The translations under genes were made by a program, and so were the position numbers. A stretch of DNA of 64,000 bases, taken from Candidatus Komeilibacteria bacterium. GTDB lineage: Bacteria > Patescibacteriota > Patescibacteriia > UBA1558 > 2-01-FULL-52-15. The notes under the pieces were generated by a model that saw only the letters and a program-made list of their open reading frames with translations, was not told the DNA's origin and ran no database searches. Location of the stretch: assembly GCA_043801745.1 (NCBI GenBank), contig JAZDLR010000022.1, positions 1,960-65,959 on the forward strand, in the 5' to 3' direction. Numbering within the stretch: position 1 is the stretch's first letter; each line of letters begins with the position of its first letter. Below, piece after piece: positions 1 to 14,414 of this stretch.

Positions 1-1475
1 TCAAAAGCTAACTTGTTAAGGATGTTGGTAACTCGGGCGGCGTGTTTCTGAGATACGCAAAAAACTATTGATTTTCCAAATAATGGAACATTTTGTTTCT
101 GCGCAATTGGATCGAAAAGGCCATTATCAATAAACGCCTTACACATGGCAATATTCGTTTCCTCATTGAAAAATTTTCGCTCATAATCACGGCCTTCAAA
201 TACTTCGTCAATAGCTTCACCCTCGTCAGTAGTTTTGTGCACGGCTAATCCTTGCTCGGAGAACAATTGAGTTGTGATCTCAGTTCGAGCATCGACAATA
301 ACCGGATTTACTAAGTAGCCATCTTTGACACCCGCAATTAGATCATAGCGAAATGTCGGCTCACCTGATTCACAGCCAAAGGTTTTATAGGTGCTTAATA
401 AAACCCTACGCTCATACTCTCGTTGTGTGTCAGCCCCTTCAGCATCAAATCCTTTTAGATAATCCTTTGGCGTGGCTGTCAGGCCAAGCTTATATCCAAT
501 AAAATATTCAAAGACCACACGGCTATTACCCCCGATCGAACGATGAGCTTCATCAGAAATAACCAACTCAAAATCTGTTGGCGAAAATTCCTTTCTATAC
601 CTATCACCCGCGAGAAACGTTTGGACGGTCGAAACCACAATACTGGCTGTTTGCCAGGAGTCACGATTATCTTTATAAATGACACAACGAAAATCATGTC
701 CCAGTTGTTGAACAAAGGCCTTGTGTGCCTGATCTTCTAATTCTAGTCGGTCAACTAAAAATAAAACGCGGCGAGCGTTTCCCGTTTTAAGAAATAATTT
801 GATCAACGCCGCCGAAACCAAAGTCTTGCCTGTGCCAGTAGCCATTTCAAAAAGGAATCTCTGATTACCTTGAGCCGCAGATTTCTGCAAACTTTTTATG
901 GCCTTTATCTGATATGGCCTTAGTTGCTTCAAATTATTATTGCGCAAAAACTCTGATCTAGTATTCTCGTCCTGATACGCTGGATCTTTGGCAAAGCTAG
1001 GCATCTGTGAAGCCACAATGTAATTCTCATCAACCTCTGTATCCGCTAACTCATCTGTATTGGGTACATAAGCCTCATATTGTGTTATAGATTCAGGAGT
1101 GGGGAAACGCGATATTACATCTGGGTTGCCACGATTTGTATCCCAAAAATAATGAATATTGCCGTTCGACAATATAATAAATCGAGCGTCGGTATTACGT
1201 GCATAATTTCTGGCTTGCTCTTTAGCAGAAAGTGGATCAACTGATTCTTTTTTTGCTTCGACAACCACTAAGGGTCGCCCATCTTTATCTAATAACAAAA
1301 AATCAATAAAACCGTGTTTCTCATTTTCAAAATCGTCACCTAATTCTGAATACTTAATACCCGGCTCTAACTGAATATTGGCTTTACCTTCTTTACTATC
1401 TTCAAAGCGCCAGCCCGACTCTTCAAGCAACTTATTTATCTTAATACGGGCTTTTGCTTCCTTTGGATTTGGCAT
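1..1475 (-). CDS. HsdR-like restriction R-subunit: N-terminal PD-(D/E)xK nuclease (HsdR_N-like) plus SF2 DEAD/DEAH helicase; C-terminus lies beyond window start (partial)
   Basis: Reverse frame from ATG at 1473-1475 reads MPNPKEAKARIKINKLLEESGWRF.. with GFIDFLLLD..VVVEAKK (nuclease-like), LRPYQIKAIKSL, FEMATGTGKT (Walker A), VISDEAHRS (motif II). No stop before position 1, so it is absent from the supplied ORF track. Hand translation only. Confidence 0.7.
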   Translation of the reverse strand, partial: MPNPKEAKARIKINKLLEESGWRFEDSKEGKANIQLEPGIKYSELGDDFENEKHGFIDFLLLDKDGRPLVVVEAKKESVDPLSAKEQARNYARNTDARFIILSNGNIHYFWDTNRGNPDVISRFPTPESITQYEAYVPNTDELADTEVDENYIVASQMPSFAKDPAYQDENTRSEFLRNNNLKQLRPYQIKAIKSLQKSAAQGNQRFLFEMATGTGKTLVSAALIKLFLKTGNARRVLFLVDRLELEDQAHKAFVQQLGHDFRCVIYKDNRDSWQTASIVVSTVQTFLAGDRYRKEFSPTDFELVISDEAHRSIGGNSRVVFEYFIGYKLGLTATPKDYLKGFDAEGADTQREYERRVLLSTYKTFGCESGEPTFRYDLIAGVKDGYLVNPVIVDARTEITTQLFSEQGLAVHKTTDEGEAIDEVFEGRDYERKFFNEETNIAMCKAFIDNGLFDPIAQKQNVPLFGKSIVFCVSQKHAARVTNILNKLAF

Positions 1476-1499
1476 GTCCCTATTTCATAAATTATTGGC

Positions 1500-1960
1500 C
1501 TAAATCTAGCCAATTTCTGCCCCAATCATCGCATATCCAAGAGGAAAGTTCAAGTTGGGAAGGTCGTGGTGGGCCACCTGCCTGGGTTTGAGGAAAGTGC
1601 GGCTTTCGAGCAAACCCGAAACCCTAAACACGAAACCCTAAAGAAATCCAAAACACCAAACACAAAATCCAAAACTCTTCGCCCAGCACGCCCCGCCAAA
1701 GGCGAGGCTCCGCAAATGCGGGCCGTGGGAGGCGGATCGGCTTTTATTGAATTATAAGGTGGGCGAAAACAAGTTCAAGGAGTAAGTGAAAGTGGGTTGA
1801 TGGGGCGGATGGGAGTAGATGGGGTTGGAGGGGTGATTGAAGATTGGGGCTTGGTCGTCCAGCTGAGCTGGATGAGCTCGATGGGGCTTGGGACTCGGTG
1901 CTGGGGGCTTGCCCGCTCTATTTGACAAACCCTTTTGGGTGGCATAATATATAGCCATAC
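1500..1960. repeat. Mosaic non-coding repeat module A1 upstream of the HsdR-like gene; shares blocks with 2700-3140
   Basis: Shared blocks with copy A2: tctgccccaatcatcgca.. (1516-1556 vs 2711-2751); aaggtgggcgaaaacaagttcaaggagtaagtgaaagtgggttgatggggcggatgggagtagatggggt (1756-1825 vs 2893-2962); ccagctgagct..gatggg.cttgggact (1860-1895 vs 3083-3110). Low-complexity A/C-rich tract 1617-1676. Confidence 0.7.
1517..1556 (-). promoter_or_regulatory. Conserved ~40-nt promoter-proximal element, copy 1 (about 40 nt 5' of the HsdR-like start)
   Basis: Minus-strand aacttgaactttcctcttggatatgcgatgattggggcaga contains TTGAAC then 17 nt then a weak -10-like GATGAT. A near-identical element sits at the same distance upstream of the DUF3800 gene. 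Confidence 0.35.
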
Positions 1961-2022
1961 AAGTAATTCCTCATACGTGGGCTTCCGGATGGTTGCTCAT
2001 AAACAGCGTATGGGGTTTTGTT

Positions 2023-2661
2023 TTAGCCAAAAAGTGAGCGTTCCTCTATAATCAAATCCCGGATAATCGCATAATAACTGTCGTCTCCCCGCTCGTATTT
2101 TCTGAAAACAGCCCAACAGACGAAATCGGCTACCTGCAGACATTTCTCGGCTTCCGGCGTGGCAATAATGACCTTGATGGCGCTTCTATGATTGCGGCTG
2201 ATCTGGCTTCTCAGATAATTCTGGAAATTTTCATTAAAAAATTTATTGGTTTCGCGGCGTGAAGCGATTAATTCTATGGGCTGGCCGCTGGTCACAATAT
2301 TCTGGGAATAAATTCTATCAAGCAGGATATTGGTCACGTAATTATACAGAACCTGTTTCTCGTCACGGAGCTTGGTATAAACCTTGGCTTTATCAAGATA
2401 AATAACCATAACCGAGCATTGATATTTGATTAACCGGCGCAAAACCCTCTTTCTGGTAATTGGCCGCTCCTTTACCGCATGCAAAACGCCCCGCTTTTTT
2501 CCTAAGATGCGGTGCAACTCAAAGCTGGTCTTCTGAATGATTTTCTCAATTGGCCGCTTGGAAGTAGGCACGAACAAAAAGGCAATAACAAAATATCTTG
2601 ATGAACCTTTTTTCTTGGAAAAACCCAAGTCGCCGCTTTCGTCCAGAAAAATATATGCCAT
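2023..2661 (-). CDS. DUF3800-like protein (conserved N-terminal DESG motif)
   Basis: ATG at 2659-2661 gives MAYIFLDESGDLGFSKKKGSSRYFVIAF.., the N-terminal DE motif typical of DUF3800. The track ORF extends to 2808, but that extension crosses a hairpin and the repeat, so the start is trimmed to the first ATG before the DESG motif. Confidence 0.6.
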   Translation of the reverse strand: MAYIFLDESGDLGFSKKKGSSRYFVIAFLFVPTSKRPIEKIIQKTSFELHRILGKKRGVLHAVKERPITRKRVLRRLIKYQCSVMVIYLDKAKVYTKLRDEKQVLYNYVTNILLDRIYSQNIVTSGQPIELIASRRETNKFFNENFQNYLRSQISRNHRSAIKVIIATPEAEKCLQVADFVCWAVFRKYERGDDSYYAIIRDLIIEERSLFG

Positions 2662-2678
2662 ATTTTTTAAATAAAATA

Positions 2679-2698
2679 AAACAGGGGGTTCCCTGTTT
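2679..2698 (-). promoter_or_regulatory. Perfect 8-bp stem-loop AAACAGGG-ggtt-CCCTGTTT, 17 nt upstream of the DUF3800 start
   Basis: Inverted repeat read directly. On the minus strand it is followed by TTTTATTTTATTT then ATG (terminator-like geometry immediately 5' of a start codon). Same motif at 4385-4407. Confidence 0.5.
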
Positions 2699-2699
2699 A

Positions 2700-3140
2700 A
2701 TTGACTTCTTTCTGCCCCAATCATCGCACATCTGAGGGGAATTTTCAAGTTTCTCGCCCGTCTCGCCGCATCGCGGACGAGCGGGCAAGTATCAAGTGCC
2801 TCCGCCAAAGGCGGATCGCCATTTATAGATTTTAAAGGTGGGCGAAAACACGAAACCCTTCGCCCAGAGGGCGATCGCCGTTAATAGATTTTAAAGGTGG
2901 GCGAAAACAAGTTCAAGGAGTAAGTGAAAGTGGGTTGATGGGGCGGATGGGAGTAGATGGGGTGGGAAAGCGACCATTAAGCTAAAGTTCTAAGCTCCCC
3001 GCCCGACTGCGAAGCGCAGCGAGGCGGGCGGGTAAGTTCGAAATCCTAAACAATATCGAAGTTCAAAATTCAAAGTTCAATCCAGCTGAGCTCGATGGGT
3101 CTTGGGACTTGATAGAGCCAGACAGCACCGAGTCTAAATA
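2700..3140. repeat. Mosaic non-coding repeat module A2 upstream of the DUF3800 gene
   Basis: See A1. Contains an internal ~57-bp tandem duplication (gatcgcc.tt.atagattttaaaggtgggcgaaaaca at 2812-2850 and 2869-2907) and a small inversion relative to A1 (actcggtgctg vs cagcaccgagt). Confidence 0.7.
2711..2751 (-). promoter_or_regulatory. Conserved promoter-proximal element, copy 2 (about 50 nt 5' of the DUF3800 start)
   Basis: Minus-strand aacttgaaaattcccctcagatgtgcgatgattggggcaga; about 85% identical to the 1517-1556 element. Confidence 0.35.
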
Positions 3141-3180
3141 AAAACGCCCCGAACAATTTGTTACGAGACGTTCTATTTAT

Positions 3181-3530
3181 TTGTTAACTGATCGCCAAAG
3201 CTTCTTTGATCTTTTGCACCACTACGTGGTCTTGCTCCAGTCGGGAAAGACGCTGTCTTACTTCCTGAAACTCACGCTGCATTTCCACTTTGGTTGGAAC
3301 CAGCTCGAAGCGTTTATATACCTCTTCAAATCGTTTATCCACACCGTCAAAGCCCTGCTTGATCATCAGGGCTAAATCGTCGTTGGTAACGTTATGATAA
3401 ATGTTTGGCTTAGGCATTGGGATAGGTTAAATTATTAAATTCTGGTAGTCACGTCCCCAATGGACGGGTCAAACCATATCCCTGTTTGAGTCATTCTCTC
3501 ACCTCAGAGAAAATTTGGCAACTGTTCATA
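3181..3530. repeat. Duplicated ~350-bp module (small-protein gene plus conserved leader), copy 1
   Basis: About 93% identical by eye to 5219-5570. The leader contains conserved hairpins TCAAAC-agggatatg-GTTTGA and CGTCC-attgg-GGACG on the minus strand. Confidence 0.8.
3184..3417 (-). CDS. Small 77-aa protein of unknown function (copy 1), predicted helical/coiled-coil C-terminus
   Basis: ATG at 3415-3417. MPKPNIYHNVTNDDLALMIKQGFDGVDKRFEEVYKRFELVPTKVEMQREFQEVRQRLSRLEQDHVVVQKIKEALAIS. The second intact copy is at 5222-5455 with 3 substitutions, which supports a real gene. Confidence 0.6.
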   Translation of the reverse strand: MPKPNIYHNVTNDDLALMIKQGFDGVDKRFEEVYKRFELVPTKVEMQREFQEVRQRLSRLEQDHVVVQKIKEALAIS

Positions 3531-3667
3531 AAACAACTGGCTCAGTGGATCGGGCGGGTTACTAATTTGATATATTTGTTCGTCTTGCTATGCTTACTTT
3601 GGCGCTTGGAGGGCTTGGCCCTATCACGGTCAATGTTTTCCAAACCGTAACCAAGTGCCACAAGAAC

Positions 3668-3689
3668 AGCCGAATGTCGGCTTTTTTTG
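3668..3689 (+). terminator. Rho-independent terminator-like hairpin AGCCG-aatgt-CGGCT followed by T7 on the plus strand
   Basis: Read directly. No annotated plus-strand gene upstream. Confidence 0.45.
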
Positions 3690-3707
3690 TTTATCATCAA
3701 ATACCAT

Positions 3708-3735
3708 TTGACAGCCGAAATAGGCATGCTAATAT
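3708..3735 (+). promoter_or_regulatory. Sigma70-like promoter TTGACA-16 nt-TAATAT (plus strand)
   Basis: TTGACA at 3708-3713, TAATAT at 3730-3735. Followed only by a 21-codon ORF (MKKTLIEVSLYRGLFYFLTHH) that includes the next terminator; this reads as sRNA-like. Confidence 0.4.
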
Positions 3736-3755
3736 ATAGTCATTACCATGAAAAA

Positions 3756-3798
3756 GACCCTTATAGAGGTTAGTCTCTATCGGGGGCTTTTTTATTTC
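3756..3798. terminator. Bidirectional intrinsic terminator (stem cccttatagag/ctctatcgggg; T-run on plus, and a T-run on minus after the NYN gene)
   Basis: Stem-loop plus CTTTTTTATTTCTT on the plus strand. The minus strand reads AAAAAAGCCCCCGATAGAG..CTCTATAAGGGTCTTTTT. It lies 73 nt downstream of the NYN stop. Confidence 0.55.
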
Positions 3799-3826
3799 TT
3801 GACACACCATTAGGTTGTGCTATCAT
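3799..3826 (+). promoter_or_regulatory. Sigma70-like promoter TTGACA-16 nt-TATCAT (extended -10 TGcTATCAT) directed antisense into the NYN gene 3' end
   Basis: TTGACA 3799-3804, TATCAT 3821-3826. Confidence 0.4.
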
Positions 3827-3870
3827 ATATATGAATACACATAGAAAGATACCTCTTAACGGTTCCGTCC

Positions 3871-4380
3871 TTAAGCGGTATTTTTCTTTTTATACTCAAG
3901 TTTATTTCGTAAATTATCTATAAAAGCGATCTTTTCTCTGGCTGTCCGCCTAAGCAAAGTCGAGCAAGTTTTGTAGTAAGGACTAAGAACCCGGGCCAAT
4001 TTATCAGCATTATATAGAAATTTGACAACTGAATAAAAGTCACCATCGCTGGTAATTAATATGACTTGATCAAAATTGCCTTCATAGAAATCAGTGATGA
4101 TCTGCAGAACCATGTCAGCATCAACATTCCCCTTATGATTTCCGTCTGGACCGATAATGACTGGCTTAAACTTCAAAATATATCCATCTTGCTGTAAGCG
4201 GGAATACAGATCCTGATTCTCCGGAATGTAACCAAGAAACAAATAGCATATTTTGACACCATATTTTTCCGCCAAATAGACCCGAAATTTTCGATAATCT
4301 AATTTCCAGCCCAGACTCTGGATTCCTAGATTTAGGTTCTGACCGTCAATATAGGCAAAATTATTAGCATTTTTTATCAT
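3871..4380 (-). CDS. NYN-domain (LabA/PIN-like) ribonuclease family protein
   Basis: ATG at 4378-4380. MIKNANNFAYIDGQNLNLG..KGNVDADMVL..ILITSDGDF, which are NYN/LabA-like acidic motifs. The track start at 4476 is a GTG whose extension crosses the hairpin. Confidence 0.65.
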   Translation of the reverse strand: MIKNANNFAYIDGQNLNLGIQSLGWKLDYRKFRVYLAEKYGVKICYLFLGYIPENQDLYSRLQQDGYILKFKPVIIGPDGNHKGNVDADMVLQIITDFYEGNFDQVILITSDGDFYSVVKFLYNADKLARVLSPYYKTCSTLLRRTAREKIAFIDNLRNKLEYKKKNTA

Positions 4381-4481: not shown

Positions 4482-5114
4482 TTAACTATCCGGAATTTCC
4501 GAATAGTTGCATTTTTTGCAACAGTTGAACACGCCGAACTCATCCCAGAGCCTATTATTCCTATCCCGCAGCCAATTTTGGGGATTCTGGCGGATATATT
4601 CCCGGATTTCAATTAGCGCATCTTCATGGCGAATGATGTGATCATAAAAAGACCGATGCCAAGCAAAATCAGGCAGGCCGGATTGATGGATTGATTTGGA
4701 GGAAATGGTTTTGAAGGCGCAGATGATTTTAGATAAAAGCATATGCTGGCGATAGATTTTATATCTTCTGCAGGCTGCGGTACGGACAACCCTAGGGTTG
4801 TCCGTACGAAATCTTTCGGACTGCCCGAAAAAATCATCTGCGCCCTGCCCCCGATCTTTTATAATTATTATTCCATGCACATGATTAGGCATAATAATGA
4901 AAGCATCTAAAGCAATATAGTGCCAGCGCCTAAGCCAAAGCCAGTTCCTCCTGGCAATCCAGCCGTATTTATTTAGCTGCATCCTGCCATTAATGACTTT
5001 ACCGAAGAAATTTTCATAATTAGCAGTATTGATCGTAATAAAATAATAGCCCGGCTGACTGTAATCATAGCCCTTAAGGCGATTGGCTTTTCTCTGGGGT
5101 AAATCAAGATACAT
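4482..5114 (-). CDS. tnpA: IS200/IS605-family (RAYT-like) HUH tyrosine transposase TnpA
   Basis: MYLDLPQRKANRLKGYDYSQPGYYFITINT..PNHVHGIIII (HUH motif), about 210 aa. The C-terminal 8 codons are encoded by a palindrome. Confidence 0.7.
   Translation of the reverse strand: MYLDLPQRKANRLKGYDYSQPGYYFITINTANYENFFGKVINGRMQLNKYGWIARRNWLWLRRWHYIALDAFIIMPNHVHGIIIIKDRGQGADDFFGQSERFRTDNPRVVRTAACRRYKIYRQHMLLSKIICAFKTISSKSIHQSGLPDFAWHRSFYDHIIRHEDALIEIREYIRQNPQNWLRDRNNRLWDEFGVFNCCKKCNYSEIPDS
4484..4508. repeat. Palindromic element AACTATCCGGAATTTCCGAATAGTT (copy 1 of 2; second copy at 9357-9381)
   Basis: Near-identical palindrome AACTATCCGAAATGTCCGGATAGTT at 9357-9381. Confidence 0.6.
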
Positions 5115-5215
5115 AAAAACAAGGATTCTTAGGTCCCTGCTTGCCCCGCCCCGCTCATAAGCGTTTCGCGCATTGAGCGGGCGGTGGTTTTCACCGCCAG
5201 AAAAGCGGCTTGTCT
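4484..5215 (-). mobile_element. Putative IS200/IS605-like element (tnpA only), bounded by subterminal hairpins; limits approximate
   Basis: Palindrome AACTATCCGGAATTTCCGAATAGTT at 4484-4508 overlaps the tnpA 3' end. Upstream hairpins CCCGCTCA..TGAGCGGG (5150-5181) and GGCGGTG-gtttt-CACCGCC (5180-5198). The ~0.7-kb size fits IS200. No TnpB. Confidence 0.35.
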
Positions 5216-5218
5216 AAC

Positions 5219-5570
5219 TTGTTAGCTGATCGCCAAAGCTTCTTTGATCTTTTGCACCACTACGTGGTCTTGCTCCAGGCGGGAAAGACGCTGTCTTACT
5301 TCCTGAAACTCACGCTGCATTTCCACTTTGGTTGGAACTAGCTCGAAGCGCTTGTATACCTCTCCAAATCGCTTATCCACACCGTCAAAGCCCTCCTTAA
5401 TCATAAGGGCTAAATCGTCGTTGGTAACGTTCTGATAAATGTTTGGCTTAGGCATTGGGATAGGTTTTAAATAATTAAATTTCGGCAGACGCGTCCCCAA
5501 TGGACGGATCAAACCATATCCCTGTTTGAACCATTTTCTCACTTCAAAGAAAGTTTGGCAATTGCTAAAT
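5219..5570. repeat. Duplicated ~350-bp module (small-protein gene plus conserved leader), copy 2
   Basis: See 3181-3530. Confidence 0.8.
5222..5455 (-). CDS. Small 77-aa protein of unknown function (copy 2)
   Basis: ATG at 5453-5455. MPKPNIYQNVTNDDLALMIKEGFDGVDKRFGEVYKRFELVPTKVEMQREFQEVRQRLSRLEQDHVVVQKIKEALAIS. The longer track ORF is an upstream extension. Confidence 0.6.
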   Translation of the reverse strand: MPKPNIYQNVTNDDLALMIKEGFDGVDKRFGEVYKRFELVPTKVEMQREFQEVRQRLSRLEQDHVVVQKIKEALAIS

Positions 5571-5578
5571 TACACCCC

Positions 5579-5607
5579 TTGACAAAATGCATATAATATG
5601 ATAATAT
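5579..5607 (+). promoter_or_regulatory. Consensus sigma70 promoter TTGACA-17 nt-TAATAT driving the G+C-rich protease gene
   Basis: TTGACA 5579-5584, TAATAT 5602-5607. The 5'UTR has two hairpins: GCCCAA-tt-TTGGGC, and CCCCC-ata-GGGGG which overlaps the SD AGGGGGG. Confidence 0.55.
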
Positions 5608-5676
5608 ACTATATTACCAGGTTGTTCATTTTTTTGCCCAATTTTGGGCTTTAACCCCCATAGGGGGGTAACAGTC

Positions 5677-6447
5677 GTGAAGCAGATCTGGTCGCGTTTC
5701 TTGGATGTTCTCCTGCTGGTTAGCACGAGCCTTTTTACCTGGTGGGCCATTAGGGCCATCATTACCCCCATGCTGCAGCACAACACACACCTGGCCCACT
5801 GGAACCCCAGTTTCCTGGCAACCATTGTGGTGGTGTCGGTGTTGGGCCATGAACTGGGCCATGCCTTTTTCATGGAACGCTATGGCCTGAGGACGCGGAT
5901 CTTTCTGCTCGTCTTCATTGGCGGCGCGGTCATCGATCCCAAGAAGATGGCCAAACTGTCGTGGAGCAAGCAGAGCAACATCCTGCTCGCAGGAGTTTGT
6001 GTTAACTTCCTGCTGGGTGTGATTGGTCTTCTGCTTGGACTGTTCGGCATCATCACCATCAGCACGGCCAGCATGTTCGCTCTGGTCAACGGAAGCATGA
6101 TCATCTGGAACTTGATACCCGTTGGACTGTTCGACGGAGGTCGCCTCGCCAAACTGCTCTTCAACAGCATTCCGGAACACGATGACCTCCGTGTCGCCCG
6201 GTACCTGAGTCGCGCTGTGCTGCCGGCTTTCATTGGGCTGTTCGCCTGCGCCGTGATCGACATGATCATCCCTATGACACTCATGGTCTGGGGATTTGGC
6301 TATCAGGCCACTCACGATGACCCCGAGGGCAGCTACAACCCTCTGGCCATGACCAGGGAGGACGTGAGCCGGCTGAGCTGGATCTACCTCTTACTGGTCT
6401 ACGGCGGTGCAGCCCTGCTGCTGCTCTTCGAACTGGTCAGGAAGTAA
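5677..6447 (+). CDS. Peptidase M50 / site-2-protease-family membrane zinc metalloprotease (minimal form)
   Basis: GTG start 8 nt after the SD AGGGGGG. HELGHAF (HExxH) in a TM helix and NLIPVGLFDGGR (the LDG motif of S2P). Multi-TM. G+C visibly higher than flanks. Confidence 0.65.
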   Translation: MKQIWSRFLDVLLLVSTSLFTWWAIRAIITPMLQHNTHLAHWNPSFLATIVVVSVLGHELGHAFFMERYGLRTRIFLLVFIGGAVIDPKKMAKLSWSKQSNILLAGVCVNFLLGVIGLLLGLFGIITISTASMFALVNGSMIIWNLIPVGLFDGGRLAKLLFNSIPEHDDLRVARYLSRAVLPAFIGLFACAVIDMIIPMTLMVWGFGYQATHDDPEGSYNPLAMTREDVSRLSWIYLLLVYGGAALLLLFELVRK

Positions 6448-6457
6448 GGCAACTTAG

Positions 6458-6510
6458 GAACCCGCGCTAGTATCATCCTCTGGATGAGAACGCGCGGGTT
6501 CATTTTTTTT
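6458..6510 (+). terminator. Long intrinsic terminator: GAACCCGCGC-tagta-TCATCC-tct-GGATGA-gaac-GCGCGGGTTC then T8
   Basis: 10-bp outer stem, 6-bp inner stem, T-run. Same architecture at 11148-11200. Confidence 0.7.
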
Positions 6511-6533
6511 ATTCAACAACGACTTGCCGACAT

Positions 6534-6857
6534 TTAGTGCGGAAAGCTAAACTCCCCGAGCAAAAACACGACAATAGTTATGAGGTAAATCAAAGCTAAA
6601 ATTTTCGCCACTGACCAGTCTTTATGTTTAATAACCGTATAGATGCCGAAAATTAATGACAGCGGACCGGATAAGGTAAAGATAATTGACAAAATATTAG
6701 CCAATACTTCTAGCCCGAAATTAGCTTCAATCACCTGCAGATTTCCCCTGATGGCCAAGGCAAAAATAAACTCGAAAATTAACGTGGCGGCCAGAGCCAG
6801 AGCGAACCAGATCGCCCACTGACCGGAACGGCTCTGGGGTTTAAAAGACAATTTCAT
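6534..6857 (-). CDS. Small hydrophobic membrane protein (about 3 TM), co-transcribed downstream of the CARDB protein
   Basis: ATG 6855-6857, 6 nt after the CARDB stop. Hydrophobic segments. Confidence 0.45.
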   Translation of the reverse strand: MKLSFKPQSRSGQWAIWFALALAATLIFEFIFALAIRGNLQVIEANFGLEVLANILSIIFTLSGPLSLIFGIYTVIKHKDWSVAKILALIYLITIVVFLLGEFSFPH

Positions 6858-6863
6858 AGTTTA

Positions 6864-9311
6864 TTACAGCTTGGGATAAACGGTGAAACGTTTAGTAGTT
6901 CTCTGAAAACAACTATTAATAAAAGATACTGACAGATTGTAGGAGGAATTTTTGACATCATATTTGTGCGTGGAAGTAAAATTATTACCACTATCTAAGG
7001 CCGGATGAGTATCTACCTGCCCCCAGGCAACGATAATAGGATCAAAGTAACGCGGCCCGGTACAGCCCGGGTAAGTACCCCAATAATCCATATGGCCACT
7101 AACTGTATAGGTTGCTAGACCGTCATTAGTCTCCGTGACTGTAATACTAGGATAACGGTCACCGGTTGGAGTTGTGGGCTCGGGCGTAACTACCGGATTC
7201 ACCGGTGTCACAGGCGGTGTAACCGGAGGCGTAACAACCGGCTCTGGTTCGGGTACGATTATGGTCGGCGGAGTAACTACTGGTACATCTACTTGCGGGA
7301 TTACGGGAATAGTAATATCGGGTACAGGATTAAGCACACCACCCGGAACATCAACACTGGGATTATTGGATCCGGTGTTATTATCGAAAATATAAGACAC
7401 TGGTGGGTGTTCTTGGATAAACTTCACTCTACCGGGTATCGGAGATGCTAAAGAATTATTATTCTCATTGCTTTCCCTAATCTGTGACTGCGGCGCATCG
7501 CCCGTGCCGTCACCCACGTCAACCGTGGCCTTAAATTTGGTGGCATATTTATAGGAATCATTATTACCGCAGAAAACGTCTTTCTGCGTATAGCGCTTAT
7601 TGCGTCCCAGCGTGCCCATAGTTTCATAACATCCGCCCAAACGCTCACCGAAAATGTTATACCAATCATAAGCCACCCGACTGTTTCTACTCGTGCCTTC
7701 CGTACCTTTATTAATAATAGTTACTTCCGGATGCAGATCGCTGCCGCGGAAATTCATGCCTTCAATTTTCAGATCCGGCGCCGGTAGGTCAATCGTTTTC
7801 GAATTATTACTTTCATTAGATTCGTGAACCAAATTTGAAGCCAGAGGTTCATTGGGATCCTCTGACATATCTAAAGTAACGCGCAGTTTGACTGCTTGTT
7901 CAGCAAATTCTGCCGGACAGGCACGGGCCACGGCTGTAGATGTACGACCCACCCCAAGAGATGCGACTCCAGCTCCGGAACCACAAGTATTGATCACACG
8001 ATTGTTGCTGTCCAGCCATTCAGAAACCAAGTTAAACCTCGGCGCTGTATCAGCTCTACCAGAGTTAATGAAATTAACATTACCAATGCGTTCGCCTCGT
8101 TCATTACGGGCCAGAGAAATTGACGTTATCCGCAAATCTGACAAAGGAATGGTCACTGTCTTAGAATTATTACTTTCATTAGACTCGTGAACTAGATTTG
8201 AAGCCAAAGGTTCATTGGGATCCTCTGACATATCTAAAGTAACGCGCAGTTTAACTGCTTGTTCGGCAAATTCAGGCGGACAGGCACGGGCCACGGCTGT
8301 AGATGTACGAGCTACGCCCAGCGGCTCCACACCAGCGCCAGAACCGCAAGTATTGATCACCCGGCCGTTACTTTCTAGCCATTCTGAAACCAAATTAAAT
8401 CTTGGTGAGGTAGAAAATCTGCCGGCATTAATGAAATTAACATTACCAATGCGTTCGCCTCGTTCATTTCGGGCCAGAACAATTGACGTTATCCGCAAAT
8501 CCGGCAAGGGAATACTGACTGTTTTCGAATTATTACTTTCATTGGACTCATGAACCAGATTTGAAGACTCCGGTTCATCCGGGTTCTCAGACCTGTCCAC
8601 AATCACCCGTAACTTAACAGCTTGTTCAGCGAATTCAGCCGGACAGGCACGGGCTACAGCAGTTGAAATCTCACCAAAACCCAAAGATTCTACTGCCGCG
8701 CCAGAACCGCAAGTATTGATCACCCGGCCGTTACTATCTAGCCATTCTGAAACCAGGTTAAAAAATGAAGGCGTAGAACCACGACCGGTGTTTACTATAA
8801 TTACATTACCAATGCGTTCACCCTGACTATTGCGAGCTAAAGTAAGTGAAGATATTTTCAAATCCGGCAAAGGAATGGTCACTGTCTTGGAATTATTACT
8901 TTCATTGGACTCGTGAACCAGATTAGTAGCCAAAGGATCATCGCTCTCATCTTTATCTATCGTCACGCGCAGTTTAACTGCCCGTTCAGCAAATTCAGGC
9001 GGACAGGCCCGAGCCACAGCTGTAGTTACCCTGGCAATACCCAAGGGTTCAACCGCGGCCCCAGAATCACAAGTATTGATCACCTGGCCGTTACTATCTA
9101 ACCACTCCGACATTAAATTAAACCTCGGACCAGTGGCGGCTCGACCGGCATTAATGATTACGACATTACCGATGCGTTCAGCTTGTGAGTTACGGGCAAT
9201 AGTAATGCTAAGAACCTGCAAATCTGGCAAATTTTCTGCTGCCGCCGGCGTCAGATTAGGCACTAATAAAAAAAATACCCAGAGCAGCGCGATTAGAAGT
9301 TTATATTTCAT
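6864..9311 (-). CDS. Secreted cell-surface protein: signal peptide, 5 tandem CARDB-like repeats (~121 aa each, ..NLVHESNESNNSKT..), Pro/Thr/Val-rich linker, C-terminal Cys-containing domain
   Basis: MKYKLLIALLWVFFLLVPNLTPAAA signal peptide. Repeats LPDL.V.SI.IARN..ERIGNV..IN.GR..T.PRFNL.SEWLDSNG.VINTCGSGA.VE.LG...T.TAVARACP.EFAE.AVKLRV. A PVVTPPVTPPVTP linker. Confidence 0.6.
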   Translation of the reverse strand: MKYKLLIALLWVFFLLVPNLTPAAAENLPDLQVLSITIARNSQAERIGNVVIINAGRAATGPRFNLMSEWLDSNGQVINTCDSGAAVEPLGIARVTTAVARACPPEFAERAVKLRVTIDKDESDDPLATNLVHESNESNNSKTVTIPLPDLKISSLTLARNSQGERIGNVIIVNTGRGSTPSFFNLVSEWLDSNGRVINTCGSGAAVESLGFGEISTAVARACPAEFAEQAVKLRVIVDRSENPDEPESSNLVHESNESNNSKTVSIPLPDLRITSIVLARNERGERIGNVNFINAGRFSTSPRFNLVSEWLESNGRVINTCGSGAGVEPLGVARTSTAVARACPPEFAEQAVKLRVTLDMSEDPNEPLASNLVHESNESNNSKTVTIPLSDLRITSISLARNERGERIGNVNFINSGRADTAPRFNLVSEWLDSNNRVINTCGSGAGVASLGVGRTSTAVARACPAEFAEQAVKLRVTLDMSEDPNEPLASNLVHESNESNNSKTIDLPAPDLKIEGMNFRGSDLHPEVTIINKGTEGTSRNSRVAYDWYNIFGERLGGCYETMGTLGRNKRYTQKDVFCGNNDSYKYATKFKATVDVGDGTGDAPQSQIRESNENNNSLASPIPGRVKFIQEHPPVSYIFDNNTGSNNPSVDVPGGVLNPVPDITIPVIPQVDVPVVTPPTIIVPEPEPVVTPPVTPPVTPVNPVVTPEPTTPTGDRYPSITVTETNDGLATYTVSGHMDYWGTYPGCTGPRYFDPIIVAWGQVDTHPALDSGNNFTSTHKYDVKNSSYNLSVSFINSCFQRTTKRFTVYPKL
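7630..9230. repeat. Intragenic tandem DNA repeat, period about 363 bp, about 4.5 copies, roughly 90% inter-copy identity
   Basis: Near-identical antisense ORFs 7852-8190 and 8215-8553 lie 363 bp apart. Repeated ESNESNNSKT-encoding units. Confidence 0.8.
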
Positions 9312-9411: not shown

Positions 9412-9666
9412 TTATTTAACCAACTTGTTATAAACCCAGGCAAAAAAACCAAAATGGCAGAAACCTTCAATGAAGCCCCAGATCACAGCCATAATCACTC
9501 CAAACCAACTCACCGAATAGCCATAGGCACTATAAAATTGCGCCAGCAAATCCGCAAAGGGCCTAAGACCGGGAATCCCAATTAGGGCAGCGATTGTCAC
9601 TAAGCCAAAGCACAGGGCACCATAAATGCCCGCGGCTAAGGCGAATTTGAGAGTATTAAGTTTCAT
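9412..9666 (-). CDS. Small membrane protein (2-3 TM), unknown function
   Basis: ATG 9664-9666. Hydrophobic segments. Confidence 0.4.
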   Translation of the reverse strand: MKLNTLKFALAAGIYGALCFGLVTIAALIGIPGLRPFADLLAQFYSAYGYSVSWFGVIMAVIWGFIEGFCHFGFFAWVYNKLVK

Positions 9667-9724: not shown

Positions 9725-9753
9725 CTTGACAAGGACATCAATATATGCTATTA
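9725..9753 (+). promoter_or_regulatory. Consensus sigma70 promoter TTGACA-17 nt-TATTAT for the G+C-rich two-gene cassette
   Basis: TTGACA 9725-9730, TATTAT 9748-9753. An about 75-nt 5'UTR ends in the SD GGAGGAG, 6 nt before the ATG. Confidence 0.6.
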
Positions 9754-9833
9754 TGATTTAATACTTAAGTCCTTTGAAATTCGGCTAATCACAGCCTTTT
9801 CAATGTTCACCATCCTACCCTACGGAGGAGTCA

Positions 9834-10766
9834 ATGAACTACGTGGAATTTGTTCGGACCAACAACGGTTTTGCCCAGGCCAAGTTGCAGAAGGCCGCTC
9901 TCGACATCGCCCAGCTGCTTGACAACAACGAGCTGCTGCCGGTGAATGGAAAGGACGGCTATACGCGCGAACGCCAGGCAAAGCTGCGCAGTCAGGTCTT
10001 CGATGACTTTTGCGTCGTCTGCTTCCGGGTCGGTGTGGCTGTCCCCGACCTCGAGCCCGCTCTCTACGAGGGCATGATCGAGGCACCCAAGAAGGAGCAG
10101 CTGGAGAAATTCACTGCTCTGAAGCGCCAAGTGTTCCAGCGCTTGCGCGGCCAGAACAGCCGCCAGGCCAAGGAAGCGCGCGCTCTGGTGCGCGCCATGT
10201 GCGTGTTGGCTAACTACCTGGAGGACAACTCCTTCAGCGGCGCCAAGCTGGACAACATGCTCGGCGTGCTGAACCAGCGCATCGTTGGACTCGGTCTGAA
10301 ACCGGTCCGCGACGACTACACCACCCGCGAGGTGCGCGTAAGGTTGGACGGGTCTGATCCCGGCAAGCCGACAACCGTCGTGGTTGTTGACGACTCCAGT
10401 GAGGAGCTCATCAAGACCGCACTGGCTCTGGCTGGCTGGCCCAACCTGCAGGTGGTTCTGTACCGGCAGCGACTTGAGGGCGAAGCCTACGGCCTCCGGG
10501 GTGAAAGAAAGACACAGGAGTTGAACCGGGCGGCGCAGGAGATCATGGCTTTTAACCCGGCAGTGATCCTAATGGACATGGGTCTTGCTGGTTTCGAGGG
10601 TACTGAGCTGGTTCGCCAGCTGCAGAGCCTGAGCAACAACATCCAGTACATTGCCAACACCGGCGGAACTCCTGATGAGCTTTACTCGGTCGGAGCGCTG
10701 GAGAACTGCGAAAAGGGACGAAACATGGCCGGCATGCGCCAGGCCATGAGAAATCTGGCTGCCTAA
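9834..10766 (+). CDS. Protein with a novel ~190-aa N-terminal domain fused to a C-terminal CheY-like receiver (REC) domain; no recognisable output domain
   Basis: C-terminus TTVVVVDDSSEELIK..AVILMDMGLAGFEGTELVRQLQ..YIANTG resembles the receiver acidic pocket and phospho-Asp region. The N-terminal 190 aa match nothing I recognise. High G+C codon usage. Confidence 0.5.
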   Translation: MNYVEFVRTNNGFAQAKLQKAALDIAQLLDNNELLPVNGKDGYTRERQAKLRSQVFDDFCVVCFRVGVAVPDLEPALYEGMIEAPKKEQLEKFTALKRQVFQRLRGQNSRQAKEARALVRAMCVLANYLEDNSFSGAKLDNMLGVLNQRIVGLGLKPVRDDYTTREVRVRLDGSDPGKPTTVVVVDDSSEELIKTALALAGWPNLQVVLYRQRLEGEAYGLRGERKTQELNRAAQEIMAFNPAVILMDMGLAGFEGTELVRQLQSLSNNIQYIANTGGTPDELYSVGALENCEKGRNMAGMRQAMRNLAA

Positions 10767-10805: not shown

Positions 10806-11129
10806 ATGTTCTTGCTGTACGTAGTCCTCATTCTGGCGGGCTGGGGACTGGCTGGCGTGGCCGCCAACTACCTCCACGACTTTCTGCTCGGCAAAGGTAA
10901 GCCGGCAGGTTACGGCTGCTGTGAGGACTGGGACAAGGCTTGGGCTCAGTACCAGCACGACCGCGATCAGCGCGAAATTGCGCTGGTTGCACTGGGTCCG
11001 TTCGGCATTCTGCTCATTCTGGCGATCTGGCTGTTCTTCCAGATGATCAAGATCGCCTTCCAGGCCGTCTGCGCCGCCGTCGTTTTTCTGCGGCGCGTGT
11101 TCATCAAGCCGAGCCTGATGGCGCTCTAA
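10806..11129 (+). CDS. Small membrane protein (2 TM) with a Cys-pair-containing loop; second gene of the cassette
   Basis: SD AAAGGAG 7 nt upstream of the ATG. MFLLYVVLILAGWGLAGVAANYL..GPFGILLILAIWLFF hydrophobic segments. Confidence 0.45.
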   Translation: MFLLYVVLILAGWGLAGVAANYLHDFLLGKGKPAGYGCCEDWDKAWAQYQHDRDQREIALVALGPFGILLILAIWLFFQMIKIAFQAVCAAVVFLRRVFIKPSLMAL

Positions 11130-11147: not shown

Positions 11148-11200
11148 GAACCCGCACTAGTATCATCCATCGGATGAGAACGTGCGGGTTCTTCTTTTTT
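11148..11200 (+). terminator. Long intrinsic terminator GAACCCGCAC-tagta-TCATCC-atc-GGATGA-gaac-GTGCGGGTTC then TTCTTTTTT
   Basis: Same design as 6458-6510, with a compensatory G:C to A:T change in the outer stem. Confidence 0.7.
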
Positions 11201-13526: not shown

Positions 13527-14414
13527 ATGACTGAAGCTACCTTAGAGTACCGCGTTGGTCACCGGGAAAAGCCCGGCGATACTGCTATCCGTTTAATTAA
13601 ACAATTTGCCACCCAAACCAATGACCGTTTAGGTGGCAACATGCTTGATTGGGAAGGGCGTTTACGTTTGGATCAATTTACCTCAGGTGACGACTACGAT
13701 CCGGATGAAGTAATCCATGATATGGATCATTGCCGCCGCAAAGAACTACTACATACCGGACTGGATGTAGCCAGCGTCCGCGAATTTAAAATCAAACAGC
13801 AGGGCATTAATACTGCCGGATTGACTGAATCACAACTGACTGAACAGCTATTGGAAAAAGAACAACTTAACCGCTACAAACACCAAGGCAGTCAGGCAGA
13901 AGTCGTTATTCCTTTGATTATGCAGCGGGCTTTGGGTGACCGTTTTGTGATTGTCCGCACCAGTACTTACGACGATTATGAAGCCGGCGTGGATCATCTG
14001 ATTATTGACCGTGAATCCGGTCAGGTGATTTGCGGCATTGATGAAGTTCTCAGTGAGGCCGCGACAGGAAAGGAAAAATTTAAAATTGAACGGGCGGAAA
14101 AGAAAGCTCAACGTGGTGGCACAACGATTAGATATGGATTGACCTTTGACAACGGGCAATTAGTCAAGAAAGAGCTGGATCATTTACTGACCATGATTTT
14201 ACCTATTAGCACCACCGACTTAGCAGCCTCACTGCAGGAATTAGGCCAGAACGTTCCGGCCGCTGCTTGCCGGCGGATCTATGATTCGCTGCGTACAGCC
14301 TTATCAGAACAACTACAACATCTGGGCACATTAAATTTATCACCAGCTATGAATCAGAAAGTCACCGAGTTCAAAACTTTGCTCAAACAATTTCCTTCAG
14401 CTACAGCTACCTAA
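13527..14414 (+). CDS. Hypothetical protein (295 aa)
   Basis: ATG start. No recognised motifs. Confidence 0.35.
   Translation: MTEATLEYRVGHREKPGDTAIRLIKQFATQTNDRLGGNMLDWEGRLRLDQFTSGDDYDPDEVIHDMDHCRRKELLHTGLDVASVREFKIKQQGINTAGLTESQLTEQLLEKEQLNRYKHQGSQAEVVIPLIMQRALGDRFVIVRTSTYDDYEAGVDHLIIDRESGQVICGIDEVLSEAATGKEKFKIERAEKKAQRGGTTIRYGLTFDNGQLVKKELDHLLTMILPISTTDLAASLQELGQNVPAAACRRIYDSLRTALSEQLQHLGTLNLSPAMNQKVTEFKTLLKQFPSATAT

Follow-up and report, generated by a model that had tools for sequence, protein, structure and literature searches.

A moron-like cassette for a minimal site-2 protease in Patescibacteria and the expression signals that surround it

Introduction

Site-2 proteases govern membrane-to-cytoplasm signalling in nearly all cells. 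To our knowledge nothing is known about those of the candidate phyla radiation, a group made up mostly of uncultured episymbionts with very small genomes, and a literature search combining Patescibacteria with site-2 proteases returned nothing relevant. Here we analyse a 64,000-nucleotide stretch of a Candidatus Komeilibacteria contig (JAZDLR010000022.1, assembly GCA_043801745.1; hereafter the window) in which positions 5579–6510 hold a gene for a putative minimal site-2 protease of peptidase family M50 together with its own predicted promoter, leader and terminator. This unit is referred to as cassette 1, and a second unit of similar build, found further along the same strand, as cassette 2.

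A comparable described arrangement is the phage moron, in the concept of Hendrix and Juhala an autonomous promoter–gene–terminator unit of deviant composition situated between resident genes. Cassette 1 likewise has its own promoter and terminator (both predicted), an alien composition and flanks that differ from genome to genome. It departs from a phage moron in lying outside any recognisable prophage, among chromosomal and defence-type genes; in having no relatives in PHROG, IMG/VR or phage collections; and in being retained across related genomes, within a family that is chromosomal in many Patescibacteria. By these features the protease cassette is a moron-like autonomous unit of a minimal Patescibacteria site-2 protease, and on balance we lean towards regarding it as a long-standing accessory module of this group.

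The M50 cassette and its expression signals

Cassette 1 begins with a predicted forward-strand promoter (5579–5607) composed of a −35 hexamer TTGACA (5579–5584), a 17-nt spacer and a −10 hexamer TAATAT (5602–5607); since TGa precedes the −10 hexamer, the promoter is of the extended −10 type. The first-pass annotation of this DNA had called the promoter perfect, a description that suits the −35 hexamer and the 17-nt spacing but not the −10 hexamer, which matches the consensus at four of six positions. Within the 64 kb, TTGACA-N14-TGnTAnnnT has two matches where 0.03 would be expected, and these are the promoters of the two cassettes. TTGACA consensus promoters as such are not alien to the host, being used by tRNA-Gln and several small intergenic units. 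The 5' leader would span about 63 nt (5614–5676, forward strand, its start placed from sequence) and contains a small hairpin, GCCC-AAUUUU-GGGC (5636–5649), and a C-run (5655–5659) that folding predicts can pair with the Shine–Dalgarno (SD) sequence AGGGGGG (5662–5668), located 8 nt upstream of a GTG start codon at 5677. The coding sequence (5677–6447, forward strand) specifies 256 aa and is followed by a two-tier putative intrinsic terminator (6458–6510, forward strand) with a 10-bp outer stem, an internal loop, a 6-bp inner stem and a 3-nt loop, then A and T8. Its hairpin (6458–6501) has a predicted folding energy of −28.3 kcal/mol (z = −5.8). Promoter, SD, coding sequence and 10+6-bp terminator are thus all present where the first-pass annotation had placed them, and 5579–6510 is a monocistronic, self-contained unit, with transcription and termination at these sites predicted from sequence.

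The unit is inserted between resident genes, the downstream one of which is convergent. On the left, a duplicated segment (5219–5564, reverse strand; 96% / 86% identical to 3181–3524), which carries a 106-aa open reading frame (ORF; 5222–5542), stops 14 nt short of the promoter. No target-site duplications or inverted repeats were seen by eye at the cassette ends. An Rfam scan of the window returned tRNA-Gln alone at the gathering threshold, and nothing between 5500 and 11300 at E values up to 1.

The composition of the unit sets it apart from its surroundings with sharp boundaries. The protease gene has a GC content of 0.565 and a GC content at third codon positions (GC3) of 0.759, and the genes of cassette 2 have values of 0.60 and 0.77–0.79. 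Mean GC3 over the 53 ORFs of at least 150 aa in the window is 0.452 (sd 0.07) with the two cassette coding sequences included; the other 51 lie at about 0.44 and range from 0.355 to 0.527. The relative synonymous codon usage (RSCU) of cassette 1 correlates with that of the host pool at r 0.07 and with that of cassette 2 at r 0.73, where the median for a typical host gene against the host pool is 0.77. The earlier view that the coding sequence is compositionally foreign is therefore well founded. The same is true of the view that native genes lack SD sequences: over the 53 ORFs the median duplex energy with the canonical anti-SD is −1.5 kcal/mol, and it reaches −6 kcal/mol or lower in four, two of which are cassette genes. 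The values for the cassette genes are −12.3 (cassette 1), −9.5 and −7.9 kcal/mol. Many native genes have a TATAAT-like box 8–12 nt before the start codon (for example at 13527, 17103, 18413 and 24047), and the position of this box just before the start suggests that leaderless or very short-leader mRNAs are the default. Translation of cassette 1 would then be SD-dependent in a host whose genes are SD-less and often almost leaderless.

A minimal site-2 protease subfamily

The protein reaches 55.5 bits on Pfam PF02163 (Peptidase_M50), for which the cut-off is 27.2 (E 6.6e-15), and this is its sole Pfam domain. HELGH occupies residues 58–62, within a helix (44–68) of the AF2 model, and NLIPVGLFDGG occupies residues 145–155, corresponding to the NxxPxxxxDG motif whose Asp is the third zinc ligand. 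The 36 subfamily sequences aligned all have H58, E59, H62, P148, D153 and G154. A profile built from 36 relatives matches SpoIVFB (8vjl, E 2.5e-13) and the Methanocaldococcus jannaschii enzyme mjS2P (MJ0392; 3b4r, E 1.2e-11), and the AF2 model computed from the 36-relative alignment (pLDDT 95, pTM 0.90) has the same two structures as its best Foldseek matches, with probability 1.0 and TM-scores of only 0.41–0.49. The protein has 6–7 predicted transmembrane helices, and neither a PDZ nor a CBS domain was found in its 256 aa, the membrane core filling the whole protein. These marks identify it as a genuine minimal site-2 protease whose zinc site is intact, as the first-pass annotation had proposed from the two motifs; it would cut a transmembrane or amphipathic segment of a substrate.

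The window protease has in common with SpoIVFB and M. jannaschii S2P the HExxH and NxxPxxxxDG zinc motifs in transmembrane helices. It differs from SpoIVFB in having no CBS domain and from RseP in having no PDZ domain. Identity to 8vjl and 3b4r is only 20–23%, and the subfamily adds to the common core a motif LF(D/N)SxPE and a C-terminal DDPxGS...AM loop (214–224) before the last helix. A HMMER search of 1.84 billion representative sequences returned 972 relatives at E<=1e-3 and 80 at E<=1e-10, of which most of the top-scoring ones are 240–255 aa long and aligned nearly full length; the named subfamily members are all Patescibacteria / Komeilibacteria. Since members match end to end and share the extra motifs, and the named ones all belong to Patescibacteria, we regard them as a distinct Patescibacteria subfamily of about 250 aa. 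No gene neighbours conserved with the protease were found, and co-occurrence favours no substrate candidate. The analysis thereby delimits a minimal site-2 protease subfamily with an extra C-terminal motif, whose members, in the loci examined, are usually encoded as stand-alone genes with strong expression signals.

The same cassette in related genomes

The window protease is 100% identical to a protein of an NCBI Candidatus Komeilibacteria metagenome-assembled genome (MAG). A separate look-up by exact protein sequence returned no record. Its closest relatives, at 53–55% protein identity, come from the locus L001 (GCA_964540995.1) and from the loci L002/L003 (two Logan runs); here and below, loci are referred to by such numbers. 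In L001 and L002/L003 the M50 cassette is present from promoter to terminator with 68% nucleotide identity to the window. The promoters of L001 and L002 read TTGACA-17-TAATAT or TAATTT with TGt, the start codon is again GTG, the leaders keep the GCCC..GGGC hairpin and the C-rich/SD segment, and the terminators have an outer stem and internal loop identical to those of cassette 1. Alignment shows that similarity between the window and L001/L002 extends from the −35 hexamer to just past the terminator, beyond which the flanks are unrelated. In L001 and L002/L003, too, the homologous cassettes are embedded in low-GC flanks.

The surroundings are in part shared at a larger scale. The order NYN ... 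M50 ... tRNA-Gln-pyrG is common to the window and L001, with different intervening genes, and identities between the two are 71% (nucleotide) for pyrG-S41, 81% (amino acid) for PyrG, 96% (nucleotide) for tRNA-Gln, 67% for NYN and 68% for M50. L001 and L002 are 94% identical over the cassette and the downstream ferric-reductase gene; the gene between these two elements is of RhuM/Fic type in one of the loci and Bro-N in the other. In L006 the equivalent slot contains no protease, and the same terminator stands behind an unrelated low-GC, leaderless ORF of 79 aa. From its gene content the cassette region is a hypervariable, defence-island-like segment (restriction–modification, NYN, DUF3800, RAYT-like, Bro-N and Fic genes) near tRNA-Gln/pyrG. 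Because the same unit sits in related genomes with differing flanks, the cassette predates the window genome. At 4-fold synonymous sites the identity between window and L001 is 0.43 for M50 against 0.29 expected (70 sites) and 0.31 for pyrG against 0.27 expected (195 sites). As the M50 identity exceeds that of pyrG, the cassettes possibly share a later ancestor than the genomes do, although the contrast is marginal.

DNA and protein searches of plasmid and phage collections gave no cassette match, searches of viral contigs with M50 and c2A alignments (IMG/VR included; c2A is the first gene of cassette 2) gave no relatives, neither PADLOC nor PHROGs had a hit to the cassette proteins, and PHROGs had none to their neighbours either. 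The MAGs of L001/L005 and L006 are labelled uncultured Gammaproteobacteria bacterium, yet they are syntenic with, and 71–75% identical to, Komeilibacteria-type sequence; the label is probably wrong.

GC3 excess and SD sequences across the subfamily

The GC3 excess, defined as GC3 of the protease gene relative to that of its neighbours, was determined for 13 subfamily loci in different hosts. It is positive in all 13, ranges from +0.02 to +0.37 and reaches at least +0.2 in eight: +0.37 in L011 and L015, +0.35 in L017, +0.31 in the window, +0.30 in L002, +0.27 in L069, +0.25 in L001 and +0.22 in L068, followed by L013 (+0.19), L018 (+0.15), L012 (+0.12), L004 (+0.10) and L020 (+0.02). The control consisted of 27 generic M50 loci from the same scan, which had retrieved 51 loci with a 5-sequence alignment (four of the 51 being true subfamily members); there the mean excess is +0.03 and no locus exceeds 0.2. 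An excess that is typical of the whole subfamily makes the GC3 deviation no clock for recency.

Upstream of the protease gene, 11 of the 12 loci checked (L017–L020 left out) have a strong SD (−6.4 to −12.3 kcal/mol); L004 has none, and that of L011, read from the sequence, lies only at an upstream TTG start. The window, L001, L002, L012, L013, L015, L068 and L069 have an exact TTGACA −35 hexamer with 17-nt spacing, and all eight have a leader too and end in terminators of their own that differ. In L012, L013, L015, L068 and L069 the protease gene stands alone between two oppositely oriented neighbours, and in L011 it heads a GC-rich block on the same strand. Other GC-rich cargo comprises cassette 2, the 4.3-kb block in L011 and several small ORFs in L017.

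The division into an SD-less core and SD-led genes recurs in L001, L012, L013, L015 and L069. With M50 excluded, SD-led genes in these loci are richer in GC3 than SD-less ones (Mann-Whitney p 0.0013, n = 83). The core genes around the protease loci lack SDs, as do cpn60/cpn10 (GroEL/GroES family by Pfam) of L015. Simple translational selection for GC3 was considered and rejected on the strength of these L015 chaperonin genes, which are both SD-less and low in GC3. In the loci examined, the deviation in GC and codon usage therefore belongs to the gene subfamily and, to a lesser degree, to the SD-led genes of these genomes, and is unusable as a sign of recent transfer. These genomes appear to run two styles of translation initiation, one for an SD-less or leaderless core and one for SD-led accessory cassettes.

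Two observations concern L011. Positions 1–4309 carry a 46%-identical protease homologue in a GC-rich, SD-led block (GC3 0.62–0.87) with three unrelated secreted or lipoprotein-like ORFs. The adjoining low-GC genes (4506–7265, GC3 ~0.4) include a FEN-1/XPG-type nuclease, which points either to an archaeal (DPANN-like?) host or to chimerism of the contig.

Cassette 2 and the shared terminator

Cassette 2 lies on the forward strand and has the same build. A predicted promoter (9726–9754, TTGACA-17-TATTAT with a TGc extended −10) precedes gene c2A (9834–10766; 310 aa, GC3 0.765, SD GGAGGAG) and gene c2B (10806–11129; 107 aa, GC3 0.787, SD AAGGAG), and the unit ends in a terminator (11148–11200) that is 87% identical to that of cassette 1, the differences including a compensatory replacement of one G-C pair by A-U in the outer stem. 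The two proteins correspond to V1846_04640 and V1846_04645 in the same Komeilibacteria MAG as the window protease. c2A consists of a helical N-terminal region of unassigned function and a C-terminal receiver-like (REC) domain, which scores below threshold for Pfam Response_reg PF00072 (22.6 bits against a cut-off of 30.2, E 1.2e-4) and matches an NCBIfam response regulator at E 6e-4. Residues D186, D187, D248, T276 and K294 are conserved with its sole homologue cluster, P0006 (37% identity); an AF2 model from two sequences is unreliable (pLDDT 46). c2B is a hydrophobic orphan membrane protein with no homologue besides itself in 5.8 billion proteins. The P0006 relative sits in a genome of 35% GC and has a GC3 of 0.34, and since it is the sole relative of c2A, richness in GC is not intrinsic to the c2A family.

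The first-pass annotation had named the products of cassette 2 as likely partners of the protease. The shared terminator, leader layout and codon usage speak for a connection, but it does not extend to co-occurrence elsewhere: no c2A or c2B homologue lies near any other subfamily protease, and no M50 gene was found near P0006 in the fetched contigs, which reach up to 4.6 kb. A common origin or common regulation of the two cassettes is plausible from these shared features, and a functional partnership, with c2B for instance as the substrate, is speculation.

The terminator itself is more widely shared. Five copies (cassette 1, cassette 2, L001, L002 and L006) give a gap-free hairpin alignment in which 98.8% of paired cells form standard pairs and four pairs show compensatory double changes; in shifted-register controls 22–54% are paired. 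The internal loop UAGUA/GAAC (nine unpaired bases) is invariant in the five copies, and the apical loop varies (UCU, AUC, ACU, CUU). Twelve of the 44 columns are variable and none of them falls in the internal loop, for which a hypergeometric estimate gives p ~0.04. A covariance model scores the two window copies at 80.9 bits (cassette 1) and 79.3 bits (cassette 2); run with filters off over the 64 kb it returns only these two, the next match having E 0.39, and elsewhere each related locus yields one copy, whereas 322 kb of other loci yield none. The pattern CCGCRCTAGTATCA-N8-20-TGAGAACGYGCGG has no match in IMG/VR or in JGI metagenomes, and in species-representative genomes it occurs only in the L001 contig and in L006. 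One terminator is thus common to three unrelated cargos, namely M50, the c2A/c2B pair and the 79-aa ORF of L006. The leader of cassette 2 has the layout of the L001/L002 protease leader, AGUCCUUU followed by a small hairpin, UUCACCA, a C-rich stretch and the SD. Since both leader layout and terminator are held in common, unrelated cargos share one expression chassis.

Conserved imperfect palindromes located 3' of different cargos, with stems that covary around unpaired bases, are likewise a feature of integron attC sites and of REP-RAYT systems. An attC reading was rejected, as the cassettes have their own promoters and the hairpin ends in GGGTTC and a T-run instead of R''/R' GTTRRRY; no integron integrase was present among the island ORFs scanned (1–21 kb). 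A dispersed repeat of REP type was rejected because the covariance model finds only two copies in the window and one per related locus. An ORF on the reverse strand (4482–5114, 210 aa) weakly resembles REP-associated tyrosine transposases (RAYT), scoring below cut-off both for NF047646 (E 3.4e-13, 49.7 bits where 80 is required) and for Pfam Y1_Tnp. It adjoins several families of short direct repeats in a G-rich intergenic region (1514–1556/2709–2751 and 1726–1829/2805–2967). Nothing was found that would link this ORF or these repeats to the terminators of the cassettes.

The sarcin-ricin/loop E bulged-G motif has the consensus AGUA/GAA. UAGUA opposite GAAC fits this consensus and lies between two helices, a likeness that we offer as a lead only. 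We know of no report of a loop E motif inside an intrinsic terminator; a literature search pairing sarcin-ricin/loop E with terminators returned nothing relevant, and no Rfam family matches the hairpin. Inspection ruled out a K-turn, since the internal loop has no tandem G.A pairs in register. A terminator with an invariant, loop-E-like internal loop that is common to unrelated cargos constitutes a concrete small RNA/DNA element. In L001 a further two-tier terminator hairpin, different in sequence, follows the gene that precedes the protease cassette (9881–9945) and has a long outer stem, an internal loop and an inner stem CCACC/GGUGG; hairpins of this build may be customary among these accessory genes.

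Origin of the cassette

The interpretation towards which we lean is that of a long-standing accessory module that circulates horizontally within Patescibacteria by way of a GC-richer, SD-using gene pool. Cassette 1 would be an autonomous expression unit made up of a strong sigma-70-type promoter, an SD leader, the protease and a very stable terminator; repeated exchange through the GC-richer, SD-using accessory pool would spread it, and cassette 2, with the same chassis and codon usage, would probably have arrived by the same route. Exchange through such a pool is favoured by unrelated cargo with the same codon usage, by the low-GC relative of c2A, by low-GC members of the subfamily and by the absence of the cassette from L006. 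Several points weigh against it. Neither a GC-rich donor genome nor a mobile element was found, and in no case is a subfamily member surrounded by uniformly GC-rich sequence. The GC3 excess at 13 of 13 loci, which include the GC-richer hosts L013 and L069, fits gene-specific selection at least as well; the broad synteny between window and L001 is compatible with vertical descent; and the synonymous-site contrast, drawn from 70 sites, sets M50 only marginally apart from pyrG. The promoter, the start and end of transcription, the protease activity and its substrate are all predicted, and the cassette junctions in the window are taken as assembled. Vertical descent with selection is accordingly the competitor to be taken most seriously, if an unlikely one: the protease would be an old resident gene whose GC3, SD, leader and promoter are kept by selection, for example because they sustain a separate, SD-dependent mode of expression, stabilise the mRNA or let it escape AT-directed RNases. 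It accounts for a GC3 above that of the neighbours at every one of the 13 loci, GC-richer hosts included, with no donor context in sight; for the shared NYN ... M50 ... tRNA-Gln-pyrG order and an M50 identity (68% nucleotide) close to that of pyrG (71%); and for the generally higher GC3 of SD-led genes in these loci. Moreover, synonymous sites of core genes are saturated, yet both M50 copies stand at GC3 0.72–0.76, a persistence that favours selection because neutral amelioration should have erased it. What it leaves unexplained is the same composition in unrelated cargo (cassette 2, the L011 block), where the relative of c2A has a GC3 of 0.34, as well as the low-GC subfamily members L020 (+0.02) and L004 (+0.10), the L006 slot that lacks the cassette and the low-GC3, SD-less cpn60/cpn10 genes of L015.

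A recent horizontal acquisition of the protease, its likely partners being encoded in cassette 2, was the original proposal of the first-pass annotation, which also considered an engineered insertion. Such an acquisition would be private to this genome and would have come from a donor that is rich in GC and uses SDs. The codon usage of cassette 1 (r 0.07 with the host, r 0.73 with cassette 2), the restriction of the strong SDs of the region to cassette genes and the setting in a variable island with restriction–modification, NYN, DUF3800 and RAYT-like genes beside tRNA-Gln all fit a recent arrival. It is nevertheless largely refuted and now improbable, as related genomes hold the cassette with the same regulatory elements at 53–55% protein identity, the anomaly in composition is subfamily-wide and no relative of c2A or c2B lies near other subfamily members. 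That the best homologues come from related genomes of the same lineage, in the same broad neighbourhood and with the same anomalous composition, goes part of the way towards refuting a recent acquisition; the deviation in composition is confirmed, and the match to the M50 profile is significant. Since related genomes carry the cassette from promoter to terminator, it is neither engineered nor privately recent; an engineered or chimeric origin is very unlikely because the protein occurs in a natural Komeilibacteria MAG, independent assemblies carry the cassette and no plasmid or phage match exists. An assembly artefact, in which a GC-rich fragment of another organism was joined into the contig, would explain the sharp compositional boundaries, but we find it barely conceivable: four independent assemblies (the NCBI MAG of the window, GCA_964540995.1 and the two Logan runs) join the cassette to low-GC flanks, the flanks continue into syntenic host genes, and two separate cassettes have host-like genes between them. 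A cassette-exchange system, in which promoter, leader and UAGUA/GAAC hairpin form a recognition or recombination module and the cargo is swapped, would agree with the occurrence of one terminator behind three unrelated cargos, with covarying stems and a varying apical loop around a fixed 9-nt internal loop (p ~0.04), with the resemblance of the cassette 2 leader to the L001/L002 M50 leader and with the RAYT-like ORF ~460 nt upstream of the cassette 1 promoter. We consider it highly doubtful: the 64 kb contain just two copies and each related locus one, viral and JGI metagenome contigs have none, no integrase turned up among the island ORFs scanned and no attC core sites in the hairpin, and a run of Ts follows the hairpin as it does in ordinary terminators. 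Where homology between L001 and L002 breaks off sharply, replacement of flanking genes would explain it equally well. A broader proposition is that these SD-less, largely leaderless Patescibacteria keep a separate class of accessory genes in a standard chassis of foreign style, composed of a consensus extended −10 promoter, a structured leader with a strong SD, GC3-rich codons and a two-tier terminator with the invariant, loop-E-like UAGUA/GAAC loop. The chassis and not the cargo would then be the conserved exchangeable unit, its hairpin would be specifically recognised by a protein or in recombination, and cargo such as a minimal site-2 protease, a REC-domain pair and small ORFs would be swapped within it; taken as a whole this is quite unlikely. 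Were it true, it would amount to a new gene-cassette system and a two-regime economy of translation initiation in the candidate phyla radiation.

Neighbouring genes and small transcription units

Between the two cassettes lies an 815-aa secreted CARDB-repeat protein (6864–9311, reverse strand) of host-like composition, in which four tandem repeats of ~363 nt diverge progressively (100, 85, 74 and 60%). An 84-aa membrane ORF (9412–9666, reverse strand) is divergent from the cassette 2 promoter; it matches an NCBIfam bacteriophage holin_4 subfamily below cut-off (E 8.3e-11) and has no PHROG match.

The duplicated segment of ~345 nt (3181–3524 and 5219–5564) encodes a coiled-coil-like ORF of 77/106 aa with a homologue at L006 1493–1705, and in each case the ORF is followed by divergent strong consensus promoters that would drive either small units or the protease cassette. 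The small units (3700–3895) are two in tandem, each with a consensus promoter, a short hairpin and a T-run; the promoters read TTGACA-16-TAATAT (3708) and TTGACA-16-TATCAT with TG (3799). The pair is 77–80% conserved in three genomes, occurring also at L006 1937–2125 and L001 770–962. In the window, as in L001, the second unit extends in antisense orientation into the NYN-nuclease gene at its 3' end, and in L006 and L001 its core holds an anti-SD-like ACCUCCU; it could be a small RNA (sRNA) or an antisense regulator.

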